Source: a virus (lineage: Duplodnaviria > Heunggongvirae > Uroviricota > Caudoviricetes). From it: a stretch of DNA of 5,159 bases. A model generated the notes under the pieces. That model did not search any database. It worked only from the letters and a program-made list of their open reading frames with translations, and had not been told where the DNA came from. Within the stretch, counting starts at the first letter, position 1. Every line of letters starts with the position of its first letter. A program made the position numbers and the translations under genes. Location of the stretch: positions 1 through 5,159 of the IMG/VR virus record IMGVR_UViG_3300018477_000004. One strand, given 5' to 3'. Below, piece by piece: positions 1-5,159 of this stretch.

Positions 1-1
1 A

Positions 2-1312
2 AACGGCGGATTGTTGGCTGGTATCGGCGGCGTCAACTCAAACGCTCCGAGCGTAAATGACATCGGCAATACGCTTCAGCTTATCAGGCAGAACAATGAT
101 ATTGAGCGTTCAGGCGCTAACAATGTTGGGCTTACTGCTTTGCAAGGCCTTTCAGGCATTGCAGGGGTGTTTCAGCAGGAAAAGCAGGCTCAGCGGCAGA
201 AAGAATTTCAGCAGGCGTACGCTAATGCTTATGCGTCTGGTGATCGCGGTGCTTTGCGTCAGTTGGCTACTCAATATCCAGACCAGATTGAATCCGTCCG
301 TAAAGGCATGGGGTTCATTGATGAAGACCAGCGTAATTCTATCGGCACCTTAGCGGCTGGCGCACGCCTTGCGTCATCGTCTCCAGAAGCAATGCAATCA
401 TGGCTGCAAAACAACGCCGGTGAGTTAGCTCGTGTTGGCGTTAATCCTCAGGACGTCGCTCAGATGTACCAACAGAACCCGCGGCAGTTCGGCGAATTTG
501 TCGATCACCTGGGGATGAACAGTCTCGGACCCGAAAAATACTTTGACCTACAGGATAAAATGCAGGGTCGCCAGGTTACCATGCGCGGTCAGGATCTGGA
601 TTCGCAAACCGCCGCTCGGAATCAGGCAATCACAATGCGCGGGCAAGATATCCAGGCGAATTTAGGTCAGCAGCGCATTAATCTGGACGCAGAAACAAAC
701 CGCATTAACAACGAAAATAAGCGCCTTGACCGGATGCTATCAGCAGAAACTAACGACCTGAAGCGCCAGGAAATACAGAGCCGCATAGCAGCCAACAACC
801 AGCAGTTGCAGCAGAAGCAGCAAGCGCTAAATGATGGCTACAAAGACGGCATCAACACCCTCACAACCAGCATGTTCACTCTGAACGATATCGTTAGTTC
901 TCCTTCACTTAAGAGCATTACAGGCTTACGTGGAGTAATCCCCAACGTTCCAGGCTCACAGGCTGCAGACACTCAGGCACGACTTGATACCTTTAAATCC
1001 CAAGCATACCTGACAGCGGTTCAGGCCATGCGAGGCATGGGCGCACTTTCTGATGCCGAGGGCAAAAAGCTCGACCAGGCTGTTGGTTCGCTGCAGAACT
1101 CGCAGAGCGAGGAGTCCTTTCGTCGCAACGCTGGCGTCATCCTGAACACGCTCAACCAGAAGCGTAATGAGGCGGTTGGTAAGTACGTTCAGCAAAACGG
1201 TATCAAGCGAGTGGAAGCGCCTCAGGCTTCTATAGATTACCTGAAGCAACACCCCGAGCTGTCAATCGACTTCATTAATCGCTACGGATATCTTCCATCT
1301 TTGGGGCAGTAA
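2..1312 (+). CDS. Internal virion / DNA-ejection protein, P22 gp20-like by position; 5'-partial because the frame is open to the window edge
   Basis: Long ORF in frame 2 with no in-frame stop between position 2 and the TAA at 1310-1312. The track start at 11 is a TTG with no convincing upstream RBS, so the gene most likely begins upstream of the window. The protein is Q/N-rich with a predicted coiled-coil stretch (approx. nt 650-840, '...QQRINLDAETNRINNENKRLDRM...QQLQQKQQALN...'). It sits immediately upstream of, and is translationally coupled to, the SLT-domain ejection protein, as for gp20 before gp16 in P22-like phages. The functional call rests on position and composition, not on recognised sequence identity. 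Confidence 0.8.
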   Translation, partial: NGGLLAGIGGVNSNAPSVNDIGNTLQLIRQNNDIERSGANNVGLTALQGLSGIAGVFQQEKQAQRQKEFQQAYANAYASGDRGALRQLATQYPDQIESVRKGMGFIDEDQRNSIGTLAAGARLASSSPEAMQSWLQNNAGELARVGVNPQDVAQMYQQNPRQFGEFVDHLGMNSLGPEKYFDLQDKMQGRQVTMRGQDLDSQTAARNQAITMRGQDIQANLGQQRINLDAETNRINNENKRLDRMLSAETNDLKRQEIQSRIAANNQQLQQKQQALNDGYKDGINTLTTSMFTLNDIVSSPSLKSITGLRGVIPNVPGSQAADTQARLDTFKSQAYLTAVQAMRGMGALSDAEGKKLDQAVGSLQNSQSEESFRRNAGVILNTLNQKRNEAVGKYVQQNGIKRVEAPQASIDYLKQHPELSIDFINRYGYLPSLGQ

Positions 1313-1640
1313 ATGGCTAATTACCGTGATTTGTTAGAGCAGGCTGGCGCACGTTACGGTGTGCCAGAAGGGTTGATGACTGCACTGGGTGCCAAGGAGT
1401 CTTCTTACAACCCTGCCGCAGTAAGCTCCGCCGGGGCTGTAGGATTGACTCAGGTCATGCCTGGGACATGGCGTGATATGGGTTATACCGATGAGCAAAT
1501 GCAAAACCCCGAATATCAGGCTGACGCTGGCGCGCGCTATCTGGCAAAGATGTACCAGCAGTTTGGTAACTGGCGTGACGCTCTTCAGGCTTATCACGAC
1601 GGTCCCGGCAACGTTATGAAGGCAAAGCGTGGTGAATATA
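1313..1640 (+). other. Lytic transglycosylase (SLT) catalytic domain within the ejection protein
   Basis: The ES, GLTQ and AYHDG motifs occur in the canonical order and spacing for goose-type-lysozyme-like SLT domains. Domain boundaries are approximate. Confidence 0.8.
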
Positions 1641-3706
1641 CGCCAGGACCTGAAGGCCGCGGTTACGTTGATGATCGCTTTGCTCAATGGGCGGGTGACC
1701 CGGTGACAGACTCAACAGTCGAACAGCGCGCCACCTCTGCAAAGGTACATCCTCAGCAAGACCCTAACAACCCGTTTGCACAACTGGAAGCACAGTCATC
1801 CGAACAAGTATCGGCATCAGGCGTGCAGTCAGACCCAAATAATCCATTTGCTCAGATTGAGCAGCAGGCAGCCAGTCAGCAGCCACCTCAACCCGTAAGT
1901 TCTGTCGCACCGAAACCTGTTCAGCAGCAAGGCGGAATAATGTCTGACCTTGGTAATGGACTTGCTGAAACCGGGCGCGGCTTACTACAGGCAGGAATCA
2001 ACGTAGCGAACATACCTGCTGAACTCACTGATGCTGTAACAAGCGCGGCGGCTTGGGCTGGCGGTAAACTCGGCATTGGCGATGGTACATATCAACCAGC
2101 ACCACGAGTAACAACGCAGGGATTAGAGCAGGACTTTGGCCTTCAGCAAGGCGCGCTGACTCCACAAACGACAGAGGGAAGGGTATTTGCTGAAGCATTG
2201 CCTTACCTCACTCCTGCTGGCGTTGAGAGAGCGGCGGTACAGGCACCAACACTTGCTGGTCGAATTGCTCATGGGGCAACTCGACTTCTAGCAGAAAACG
2301 CAGTTGGATCACTTGCTGCAAACAGTGCGAAAGATGATGCGGAAGCACTCGCCACCGATTTAGGCGTTGGTGTGCTGGCTGGCGGTGCTATTAACGCTGC
2401 CGGACGTGGATTAGGTGCTGCTTATCGTGGTGTTCGTGGTTCGATAGCACCAGAAGCGCAACAGGCTATCAGATTTGCAGAACGTGAAGGAGTTCCTCTG
2501 CACACCACAGACCTGTTACAACCCATTTCCCGCGTCGGAAAAATGGCGCAGACGACAGCGGAAAATATCCCCCTGGCTGGCACAAGCGGAATGAGAGCAA
2601 CGCAACAGGAAGCGAGAAGCCAGTTGGTGCAGAGATTTGCTGATAAATTCGGTGAGTATGATCCAGCTGTTGTTATTGACAGCCTTAAAGCGAAAACATC
2701 AGGAATTCGTCGCGCTGCAGGAAATCGACTGGAGCAGGTTCAGAATGCTATGGCGGGAATAAACATTCAGCCTGCAAGAGCAATTCAGCAGATTGATACA
2801 GAAATATCTAACCTGCAGAAGCTTGGTAAGGTTGCTGATAACGAGACTATTTCAAAACTTCAGTCCTATCGTGATGAGCTTGTTCGCAATGCTGGTCCTG
2901 ATGGTCCGGTAAATCTGGATTTGAAGCAATTAAGCGATCTGCGCAGCCAGTTCAGAATGGACGTGAAGGGGGAGCGACCAGTGTTACCAAACCGTTCCGA
3001 TGCTGCCATTCAGCGCGTTTACAAGGCAATGACCGACGATATCAATGGTGCCATTGGTCAGAATCTTGGCAACGATACTCTCCGTAAATATCAGCAGGCC
3101 AATGCCGTCTACGCTGACGAAGCGGCGAAACTAAAGAATACCAGGCTGAAGAATGTTCTCATGAAAGGCGACCTGACGCCGGAAGTTGTCAACAACATGC
3201 TATTCAGCAAGAACAAATCGGAAATTAAGACTCTGTATAACTCAGTTGGTCGTGTTGGCAGGGCGCAAATGCGCAATGGCATCATTGGAAAGGCGATGGA
3301 GAAATCAGGTGGTTCCCCTGACCAGTTCCTTCGGCAGCTTAACATCCTGCAAAACCAGACTGGCATCACATTTAAAGGTCAGGAAGCCGCTTATCTGAAA
3401 GGATTGAAAAACTACCTGCAATCCACGCAGCAGGCTGCAAAAGCGGCAGTAACAACACCAACAGGGCAGCAAACCATCCCGTTCATTATCGGGTATGGGA
3501 CGGCAATGAACCCGGCGACAACTGGCGCAGCGGTAAGCTACGGACTTCTTACTCGCGCCTATGAGAGCGAGCCATTCAGAAATGCAATGCTCCGAATGGC
3601 AAACACCCCACGCGGATCAACAGCGTTTGAGAAAGCCATGCAGCAGGCGCAAAAGGCCATTAACGCCCTGACTCAAGGTGCCAAGTCTGATGCGTTGTCA
3701 GAATAG
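1313..3706 (+). CDS. Large ejection / internal virion protein with N-terminal lytic transglycosylase (SLT) domain; occupies the P22 gp16 position
   Basis: 797-codon ORF from ATG 1313 to TAG 3704-3706, with GGGG 7 nt upstream of the ATG. The N-terminal ~110 residues carry the family-1 lytic transglycosylase motifs: catalytic Glu-Ser in 'GAKESSYNP' (Glu codon 1397-1399), 'GLTQVMPGTW', and 'AYHDGPGNV' (AYNAG-like). These are followed by a low-complexity linker with two DPNNPFAQ(L/I)E repeats, a Gly/Ala-rich segment ('GVGVLAGGAINAAGRGLGAAYRGVRGS', approx. nt 2360-2450) and a long C-terminal region. Confidence 0.93.
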   Translation: MANYRDLLEQAGARYGVPEGLMTALGAKESSYNPAAVSSAGAVGLTQVMPGTWRDMGYTDEQMQNPEYQADAGARYLAKMYQQFGNWRDALQAYHDGPGNVMKAKRGEYTPGPEGRGYVDDRFAQWAGDPVTDSTVEQRATSAKVHPQQDPNNPFAQLEAQSSEQVSASGVQSDPNNPFAQIEQQAASQQPPQPVSSVAPKPVQQQGGIMSDLGNGLAETGRGLLQAGINVANIPAELTDAVTSAAAWAGGKLGIGDGTYQPAPRVTTQGLEQDFGLQQGALTPQTTEGRVFAEALPYLTPAGVERAAVQAPTLAGRIAHGATRLLAENAVGSLAANSAKDDAEALATDLGVGVLAGGAINAAGRGLGAAYRGVRGSIAPEAQQAIRFAEREGVPLHTTDLLQPISRVGKMAQTTAENIPLAGTSGMRATQQEARSQLVQRFADKFGEYDPAVVIDSLKAKTSGIRRAAGNRLEQVQNAMAGINIQPARAIQQIDTEISNLQKLGKVADNETISKLQSYRDELVRNAGPDGPVNLDLKQLSDLRSQFRMDVKGERPVLPNRSDAAIQRVYKAMTDDINGAIGQNLGNDTLRKYQQANAVYADEAAKLKNTRLKNVLMKGDLTPEVVNNMLFSKNKSEIKTLYNSVGRVGRAQMRNGIIGKAMEKSGGSPDQFLRQLNILQNQTGITFKGQEAAYLKGLKNYLQSTQQAAKAAVTTPTGQQTIPFIIGYGTAMNPATTGAAVSYGLLTRAYESEPFRNAMLRMANTPRGSTAFEKAMQQAQKAINALTQGAKSDALSE
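1760..1861 (+). repeat. Two copies of an in-frame 30-nt unit encoding DPNNPFAQ(L/I)E, separated by 42 nt, inside the ejection protein linker
   Basis: Copy 1 is 1760-1789 (gac cct aac aac ccg ttt gca caa ctg gaa) and copy 2 is 1832-1861 (gac cca aat aat cca ttt gct cag att gag). The peptide is conserved but 7 of 10 codons differ at the nucleotide level. Confidence 0.7.
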
Positions 3707-3795
3707 CTTCGCAAACACCAGGAACGTGCAAAAACCAAATATGTAGAACGCAATATTCAGCATATCTCTTTGCATAAATCCTCCGTAACTGATAG

Positions 3796-4056
3796 TTAGC
3801 TGCTGTCTTTTTTATATAGCTCTTTGAGCGTATCAAAGACAATTTTCTTAACCATATCAGATTGTTGTTCTGCCATACGCTCTGCATCGTCAATGTAAAC
3901 TGATGCAGAGCTTTGTTTAGCCAATGATTCTTCAATCGCTGCAATTATCTCTGAGTTCAGAGACCTGTTATTCATCTTCGCACGCTGTTTAATTTTCGCG
4001 TGGAGTTCATGCGGAAGTCTCAAGTGAAACTGCGCCTCGTCGTATTTGCTGTACAT
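3796..4056 (-). CDS. mnt: Mnt-like ribbon-helix-helix (Arc/MetJ family) transcriptional repressor
   Basis: Minus-strand ORF ending at the TAA complement at 3796-3798. The product ('...FHLRLPHELHAKIKQRAKMNNRSLNSEIIAAIEESL...DAERMAEQQSDMVKKIVFDTLKELYKKDSS') closely resembles P22 Mnt as I recall it ('...FNFRMPMEVREKLKFRAEANGRSMNSELLQIV...DAERLADEQSELVKKMVFDTLKDLYKKTT'). The start is placed at the ATG complementary to 4054-4056, which gives a P22-like N-terminal length and has GAGG about 8 nt upstream. The longest ORF would instead start at 4089 (11 codons longer). Confidence 0.85.
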   Translation of the reverse strand: MYSKYDEAQFHLRLPHELHAKIKQRAKMNNRSLNSEIIAAIEESLAKQSSASVYIDDAERMAEQQSDMVKKIVFDTLKELYKKDSS

Positions 4057-4129
4057 CCTTGATGCCTCACCAGTTGGGTGGAATGGCATCGTAACCTACT
4101 GGATAAATACTCAATAGTACCATTTCGGT

Positions 4130-4152
4130 ATGCAATCACATCATGGTTGCAT
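4130..4152. promoter_or_regulatory. Inverted repeat ATGCAA-N11-TTGCAT in the divergent mnt/tailspike intergenic region; candidate operator
   Basis: Perfect 6-bp arms at 4130-4135 and 4147-4152, read directly from the sequence. It lies between the divergently transcribed repressor and tailspike genes and overlaps a possible leftward -10 (complement of 4151-4156 = TATGAT). Any function is inferred. Confidence 0.25.
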
Positions 4153-4166
4153 CATATCATTCGTCT

Positions 4167-4170
4167 GGAG
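4167..4170 (+). promoter_or_regulatory. Shine-Dalgarno (GGAG) for the tailspike gene
   Basis: GGAG sits 7 nt upstream of ATG 4178. Confidence 0.5.
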
Positions 4171-4177
4171 CAATGAA

Positions 4178-4519
4178 ATGTCAGATATCACCGCAAATGT
4201 TGTGGTAAGCATGCCTTCGCAACTCTTCACTATGGCTCGTTCTTTTAAAGCCGTAGCCAATGGCAAAATTTATATCGGTAAAATTGACACTGACCCGGTA
4301 AATCCTGAAAACCAGATTCAGGTTTATGTGGAGAACGAAGACGGTTCTCACGTCCCTGTTTCGCAACCAATCATCATTAACGCTGCTGGTTACCCTGTAT
4401 ATAACGGACAGATTGCCAAATTCGTTACCGTGCAAGGCCATTCTATGGCTGTTTATGATGCGTACGGTGTGCAGCAGTTCTATTTTCCGAATGTGCTTAA
4501 GTATGACCCTGATCAGTTC
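4178..4519 (+). other. Tailspike head-binding (particle-attachment) domain
   Basis: This is the block conserved with P22 gp9 residues ~1-113. Similarity is lost right after 'KYDPDQ(F)'. Confidence 0.8.
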
Positions 4520-5138
4520 AAGATTCTAATAGAAGGAGATGATGGCTATAAATACATACCAAGTCTTAATAAAATAAAATCAGAAATACCAGCAGAATAT
4601 TTTCGAACAATATCTAGCGATGACCAATCAACACTTCAGAATGCTATTGATTATGCAACATCTAAAGGATGGTCAGTATTTCTTGAAACGGATAAAGTAT
4701 ATAGAGTTAGATCTGTCAATGTTTCTTGCATGTTGCGTGGATTCTCTTTCATTGAAAGGATTGAAGGAACATCTGAAACATTGATAAATATGATGAGTGG
4801 AGGTGGATTAAAAGATCTAACTATAAATGGAATGATAACGTCAGGAAATGACACCGTTGGAAATATTGTTTGCCAAGGGTTAACTTCTGTTTTATTTAAG
4901 AATATAAAATCAATTAATGCCGGTGGCCATAACATAACAATTAGAGATACTCCTGAAAATGGAGGAAATACAATTAAAGATTGTTATATTTCAGGAACGC
5001 GTGTTGGATATGGGATTTATCTTAGGAATGTGCGTGGGGAATCAATTAAAAATACAAAGATAACAAAATGTGCTAGTGATGGTCTTGCGTTATCAAATTC
5101 ATCATTTACTGAATCCCCTGTTGAAATTGTTGGTGTAG
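4178..5138 (+). CDS. Tailspike protein, 3'-truncated: P22 gp9-like N-terminal head-binding domain fused to a divergent AT-rich beta-helix receptor-binding module
   Basis: ATG at 4178 with GGAG 7 nt upstream. The frame is open to the window end with no stop, which is probably why the ORF track omits it. The N-terminus '[46 protein letters not shown]...[13 protein letters not shown]...NVLKYDPDQ' is near-identical to the P22 tailspike head-binding domain as I remember it ('[46 protein letters not shown]...'). Downstream of ~4520 the sequence is AT-rich and encodes motifs typical of right-handed parallel beta-helix depolymerases ('[25 protein letters not shown]', repeated 'N-x-I/V-x-x-C...G-x-x-G-I-x-L' rungs). 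The final 21 nt of the window are adapter and are excluded from the CDS. Confidence 0.9.
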
Positions 5139-5159
5139 AGATCGGAAGAGCACACGTCT
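5139..5159. other. Illumina TruSeq adapter sequence (AGATCGGAAGAGCACACGTCT); a sequencing or assembly artefact, not biological sequence
   Basis: Exact 21-nt match to the start of the standard Illumina TruSeq adapter, located at the extreme 3' end of the window. Confidence 0.9.

Follow-up and report, generated by a model that had tools for sequence, protein, structure and literature searches.

Untrimmed Illumina adapter sequence at the 3' end of a P22-like phage sequence and the artificial truncation of its tailspike gene

The last 20 to 21 bases of the window (the whole stretch of viral DNA analyzed here, 5,159 nucleotides in length) are almost certainly untrimmed Illumina TruSeq-type adapter that derives from Read-1 read-through, and the tailspike open reading frame (ORF) in which they lie is incomplete as a result of this artifact rather than as a property of the gene. 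The 21-mer itself is a technical artifact that holds no biological novelty; it is textbook adapter contamination, and its significance is one of data hygiene only. The region that underlies it is an ordinary P22-like E. coli/Shigella prophage that encodes injection proteins, an Arc/Mnt repressor, and a tailspike.

Identity, orientation, and wider occurrence of the adapter

Positions 5139 to 5159 of the window read AGATCGGAAGAGCACACGTCT and agree at 21 of 21 positions with the first bases of the Illumina TruSeq-type Read-1 read-through (3') adapter, AGATCGGAAGAGCACACGTCTGAACTCCAGTCA, such that the tail of the window is laid out as ...GTTGGTGTAG followed by A and then by GATCGGAAGAGCACACGTCT. 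An exact match of the last 21 nt to the TruSeq adapter prefix had been claimed in an earlier note on this DNA, and this claim holds: no other match to the adapter was found anywhere in the window, on either strand, even when up to 3 mismatches were permitted, and 200 dinucleotide-preserving shuffles likewise yielded no match at this tolerance. Chance alone would yield 2.3e-9 exact matches over both strands if bases are taken as uniform and 3.2e-9 if the composition of the window is used. Further adapters that were screened comprised TruSeq Read-2, TruSeq universal, Nextera, P7, and small-RNA sequences. Matches of 10-11 bases to these other adapters at positions 843, 1387, and 1577/1586 were set aside, as they lie inside conserved coding sequence and their number is about that expected by chance (calculated for roughly 130 ten-mers and two strands).

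The nine bases past the common 12-13-mer, CACACGTCT, place the match on the Read-1/index-adapter side; the Read-2 continuation would be CGTCGTGTA. The adapter is in forward orientation, points outward, and occupies the last 21 bases of the window, which is the orientation expected at a 3' end. Moreover, the signature of an adapter artifact, which consists of the A of the A-tail, then GATCGGAAGAGC, and then a read-specific extension, is present from the first base on. A total of 21 nt of adapter is retained, and the index and P7 part is absent. During library preparation, A-tailing adds a non-templated dA that is the first base of the adapter. It should be noted that many TruSeq-compatible ligation kits, and not just those sold as Illumina-branded TruSeq, employ this adapter; the TruSeq label given earlier is therefore right as to the sequence but not exclusive. 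No adapter was found at the 5' end of the window, where the sequence matches E. coli prophages at 98% from its first base.

The same 21-mer recurs in IMG/VR, where a scan returned at least 120 contigs, with 125 occurrences among the matches listed. Among these listed matches, 112 of the 125 copies lie no more than 150 nt from an end of the stored stretch and face outward, and 103 of the 108 copies that are followed by further bases continue as GAACTCCAGTCAC.... In MGnify genome catalogues, forward adapters were found to be concentrated at contig ends and reverse complements at contig beginnings, adjoining CACACGTCTGAACTCCAGTCA, and it was argued that adapters break contigs (PMC11536531). Together, the listed IMG/VR matches and the MGnify report support read-through and the ending of contigs in adapter as a general behavior. 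The window resembles the contig-end contamination reported from MGnify (PMC11536531) in that AGATCGGAAGAG is followed by the Read-1-specific CACACGTCT at its 3' extremity, facing outward, and in that related genomes continue the gene that the adapter interrupts. The only difference from such known contamination is the short retained tail, 21 nt versus a median of ~41 nt among the IMG/VR matches listed (counting all bases of the stored stretch from the A of AGATC on).

Internal adapters do exist, as both ends of the stored stretch are over 150 nt away for 12 of the 125 copies among the IMG/VR matches listed. The adapter in the window could in principle mark an internal chimeric joint, in which case the window would have been cut from a longer contig that glues the phage to unrelated DNA. 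We regard such a joint as improbable, given that ~90% of the copies among the matches listed are terminal and outward-facing and that the window, with a length of 5159 that is not round and an end that falls inside the adapter, has the look of a whole contig. Even if the joint were internal, the 21-mer would still be an artifact, and the conclusion that the sequence should be trimmed or split would be the same. With regard to the earlier statement that the contig ends on untrimmed adapter, the adapter stands (21 of 21 bases, with three homologues that differ from it), while we infer, rather than observe, that the contig itself, and not just the window, ends at 5159.

The junction within the tailspike gene

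The gene that is cut by the adapter begins at an ATG at position 4178 on the plus strand and extends over 4178-5138, which corresponds to codons 1-320 and the start of codon 321 and leaves the gene artificially open-ended. Its identification as a tailspike in the earlier note is borne out by a head-binding (particle-attachment) domain at 4178-4516, in which residues 1-113 match PF09008 along the whole profile (positions 1-113 of 113) with E = 2.8e-67 and after which a partial match to Beta_helix occurs, and by homology to WP_370612952.1, the tailspike of E. coli ET665, which is 634 aa long and is identical at 317 of the first 321 residues. Judged by these matches, the truncated gene is a P22-type tailspike gene. 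The Beta_helix match in the window (PF13229, residues 226-309) scores 25.6 bits against a cut-off of 25.9, a shortfall that results from truncation of the domain; in the full-length homologue, the corresponding match reaches 31.1 bits over residues 223-331 and is accompanied by a second stretch. The break at residue 321 lies inside this beta-helix match. The window thus holds residues 1-321 of a protein of 634 aa and lacks residues 322-634 (313 codons), any C-terminal trimerization region, and a stop codon, in agreement with the earlier view that the 3' end of the gene is missing for a technical reason. At codon 321, the window has GAG and the homologues have GAA, both of which encode Glu. Beyond it, the window reads IGRAHV at residues 322-327, encoded by the adapter, where the homologue has SFDNGG; the tail that the earlier note had called not real protein thus consists of exactly six false residues.

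Window positions 4100-5159 were compared by megablast with 5,426 complete E. coli genomes. Three chromosomes (ET665, STEC379, and STEC384) cover the query almost to its end at 98.2-99.4% identity, and all of the alignments end at query base 1044, which corresponds to window position 5143. A scan of JGI/ENA metagenomes with the 26-mer immediately upstream of the junction retrieved an additional relative, metagenome contig NODE_6992 of ERZ773241 (hereafter L123), with 99.4% identity to window 2818-5143. This genuine 26-mer had 0 matches in GTDB genomes and in IMG/VR, and a 35-nt pattern that spans the junction had 0 matches in each of IMG/VR, JGI metagenomes, and GTDB genomes. The junction was read across in ET665, STEC379, and L123; STEC384 matches the same span and was left out of this reading. 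Up to position 5139, these three homologues are 97.6-99.4% identical to the window. After 5139, all three continue as ATCTTTTGATAATGGTGGAAATGG... or ATCTTTTGATAATGG..., whereas the window has GATCGGAAGAGCACACGTCT. When placed side by side without gaps, the homologues read TCCCCTGTTGAAATTGTTGGTGTAGA before the junction and ATCTTTTGATAATGGTGGAAATGGC... after it, and the window reads ...GGTGTAGA and then GATCGGAAGAGCACACGTCT (in short, ...GGTGTAGA is followed by GATCGG in the window versus ATCTTT in the homologues). The native sequence at this site in L123 and ET665 is ...GTAGAATCTTTTG.... With three homologues read across the junction, the window is seen to depart from its relatives exactly where the adapter starts; it should be noted that these homologues come from other samples and so show the usual gene, not the DNA past 5138 in the source sample.

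In the ungapped comparison, the first difference between the window and the homologues is at 5140. The A at 5139 is the first adapter base, and each of the three homologues also continues with A as its next genomic base; the first demonstrably foreign base is therefore 5140. Accordingly, the demonstrably foreign stretch is the 20 nt at 5140-5159 on the plus strand (GATCGGAAGAGCACACGTCT), an exact adapter match where the three homologues read ATCTTTTGATAATGG..., with one ambiguous base at 5139; of the 21 nt originally assigned to the adapter, 20 stand and one could belong to either sequence. Under ligation chemistry, the last templated base of the fragment would be 5138. Position 5143, where the BLAST alignments end, was considered as the junction and rejected in light of the ungapped first difference at 5140; the alignments probably reach 5143 by means of a 1-nt gap (A-ATC versus AGATC) that yields an extra ATC.

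Upstream of the adapter, the sequence appears sound. Window positions 1-5139 are colinear with real E. coli prophages, with no chimerism ahead of the adapter, and the sole substitution unique to the window in the last 160 nt is at 5099 (C versus T in ET665 and STEC379; Ala304 versus Val). Errors do not accumulate beside the adapter, and the bases that lead up to the junction thus seem trustworthy. A tailspike gene that is also biologically disrupted just past 5138, by an insertion sequence (IS), a deletion, or a module polymorphism, with the adapter merely capping the break, has precedents nearby: L123 carries an IS1 end in its injection gene, STEC379 has a split DUF6056 gene, and the receptor-binding module of the tailspike is mosaic and rare. 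Nevertheless, positions 5100-5139 show no sign of disruption, there being the one unique substitution in 160 nt and a reading frame that is intact to the junction, and adapter read-through by itself accounts for the break, such that we consider an additional disruption very unlikely. Finally, that the 21-mer is genuinely genomic, whether by chance identity or as a real insertion in the tailspike gene, has nothing in its favor except the presence of the 21-mer in the window and is next to impossible in view of a chance expectation of ~3e-9 (0 of 200 shuffles even with 3 mismatches), three near-identical homologues that lack the 21-mer and continue in frame with beta-helix, and its position at the extreme end in the orientation typical of an artifact.

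Proposed origin of the adapter tail and its consequences

The adapter tail probably arose from a library fragment that was shorter than the read length and that ended at genomic base 5138. Such a fragment would have been A-tailed and ligated to an indexed adapter, and the read would have run from the insert into A followed by GATCGGAAGAGCACACGTCT.... With reads that were trimmed of adapter incompletely or not at all, assembly may then have carried the phage contig into the adapter. Adapter k-mers would be common to every read-through read, leaving the graph unresolvable past them, and the contig would stop there. The read-through and graph-hub steps of this scheme draw on library chemistry and assembler behavior. 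Three points are directly observed: which sequence the 21-mer is, where exactly the window parts from the homologues, and that 313 codons are missing.

A comparable case of a de Bruijn graph terminating in a repeat is provided by L123, the name of which is of the SPAdes type. In this contig, exactly the first 55 nt belong to an IS1 terminus, after which unique prophage sequence follows; annotated IS1 copies match this terminus at 100% in 4,959 of the 5,426 E. coli genomes. The start of L123 implies either an insertion of IS1 in the injection gene with the lytic transglycosylase (SLT) domain or a contig that ends one k-mer into a repeat. In the latter case, L123 would stop a short, fixed distance into shared sequence, and the window is alike in this respect with its 21 nt; however, the IS1 of L123 is a real genomic repeat, whereas the adapter in the window is synthetic. 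One may speculate that 55 and 21 nt are the k-mer sizes of the respective assemblers. The tail lengths in IMG/VR are censored at 21 by the search itself and so provide no test of a k of 21.

If left in place, the adapter would add six false residues to a protein record, and a half-length tailspike could be mistaken for a distinct variant. Additionally, false homology could arise between unrelated contigs that have adapter tails, and the sequence would fail the NCBI adapter screen. The remedy is to trim the sequence from 5139 or 5140, with AGATCGGAAGAGC as the adapter string for trimming, and to mark the tailspike coding sequence as 3'-partial. Re-assembly after proper trimming may lengthen the contig, as for other contaminated assemblies (PMC11536531).

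The mosaic tailspike and the surrounding prophage

Apart from its artificial end, the underlying gene is an ordinary mosaic P22-family tailspike gene. Tailspikes of this family (P22 gp9, Sf6 gp14, HK620 gp9, and the CUS-3 endosialidase tailspike) have a conserved N-terminal head-binding domain, which they share with the window, followed by a right-handed beta-helix; the receptor-binding part in the window, by contrast, is a different, low-GC module. At the DNA level, IME10, Sf101, HK620, CUS-3, and Sf6 are 88-95% identical to the window over 4100-4523 (bases 1-424 of the query that spans window 4100-5159). Among PDB sequences, the matches to the N-terminal domains of Sf6 gp14 and the P22 tailspike cover only the first 115-131 residues, and those to 7sg7, 2xc1, and 1lkt are confined to residues 1-131 of the window tailspike. 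A total of 42 complete E. coli genomes have one match that covers at least 80% of the window, and among the best listed of these 42, the match, with 97-98% identity, begins at base 1 and ends at 4514-4557 (mostly 4522). It is just past the head-binding domain, at window 4500-4600, that GC content drops from ~52% to 33% at a sharp mosaic boundary within the tailspike gene. The low-GC (~33%) start of the receptor-binding beta-helix module accordingly occupies 4523-5138 on the plus strand, as delimited by the GC drop, the end of the E. coli match, and the Beta_helix span, and it is cut in the middle of the domain; only the first ~205 residues of the module lie in the window.

This downstream module is present in 3 of the 5,426 complete E. 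coli genomes and is absent from all P22-like records of the phage collection. For the receptor-binding part of the full-length homologue (aa 116-634; positions 6424-7980 of locus L001), no PDB entry is related by sequence, and the 50,697 phage records contain a single related region, which lies in the Shigella boydii phage pSb-1 (71.6 kb), has 64.5% amino acid identity, and is annotated there as two hypothetical proteins. Since pSb-1 is not among the P22-like matches to the head-binding domain, this similarity suggests, at the level of sequence, that the module has been exchanged between phage lineages. Whether the module may represent an uncharacterized glycan-degrading specificity that has been passed between different podophage lineages is a more tentative matter, and we offer it as a possibility that we hold to be rather less than even.

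The remainder of the window encodes genes that are typical of the prophage described above. The 3' part of a gene for a P22 gp20-type injection (DNA ejection) protein, open at the 5' end of the window, is encoded on the plus strand at 2-1312 (Inj_translocase, PF16928; E = 7.6e-68), and its sequence is genuine from base 1 onward. It is followed at 1313-3706, also on the plus strand, by a gene for a DNA-injection protein of 797 aa whose N terminus holds a lytic transglycosylase domain (SLT, residues 7-110; E = 2.8e-25); its counterpart is annotated in homologous prophages as a lytic transglycosylase domain-containing protein. A look-up of the exact 797-aa sequence returned no record. At 797 aa, this protein is longer in the window than in ET665 (665 aa) or STEC379 (612 aa). 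The alignment of ET665 to the window is confined to 1922-5143 (that of L123 to 2818-5143), and the 5' third of the SLT-domain injection gene is thus another mosaic segment.

Upstream of the tailspike gene, an Arc/Mnt-type repressor gene is encoded on the minus strand at 3796-4089 (Arc, E = 1e-14; Repressor_Mnt, E = 3.3e-14), and homologous prophages annotate this gene as encoding an Arc family DNA-binding protein. The repressor ORF is 97 aa when counted from its first ATG; RefSeq gives 86 aa for its homologue, and the true start is therefore probably an internal ATG. A second minus-strand ORF at 3660-3944 that overlaps the repressor gene has no Pfam match and is probably spurious. In complete prophages, the tailspike gene is followed on the opposite strand by genes for DUF6056, gtrB (yfdH), and gtrA (yfdG) (positions 7988-10535 of L001 and 7925-10473 of L002); in STEC379, it is the DUF6056 gene of this set that is split in two. 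DUF6056, gtrB, and gtrA together make up a module for O-antigen modification by glucosylation (serotype conversion).
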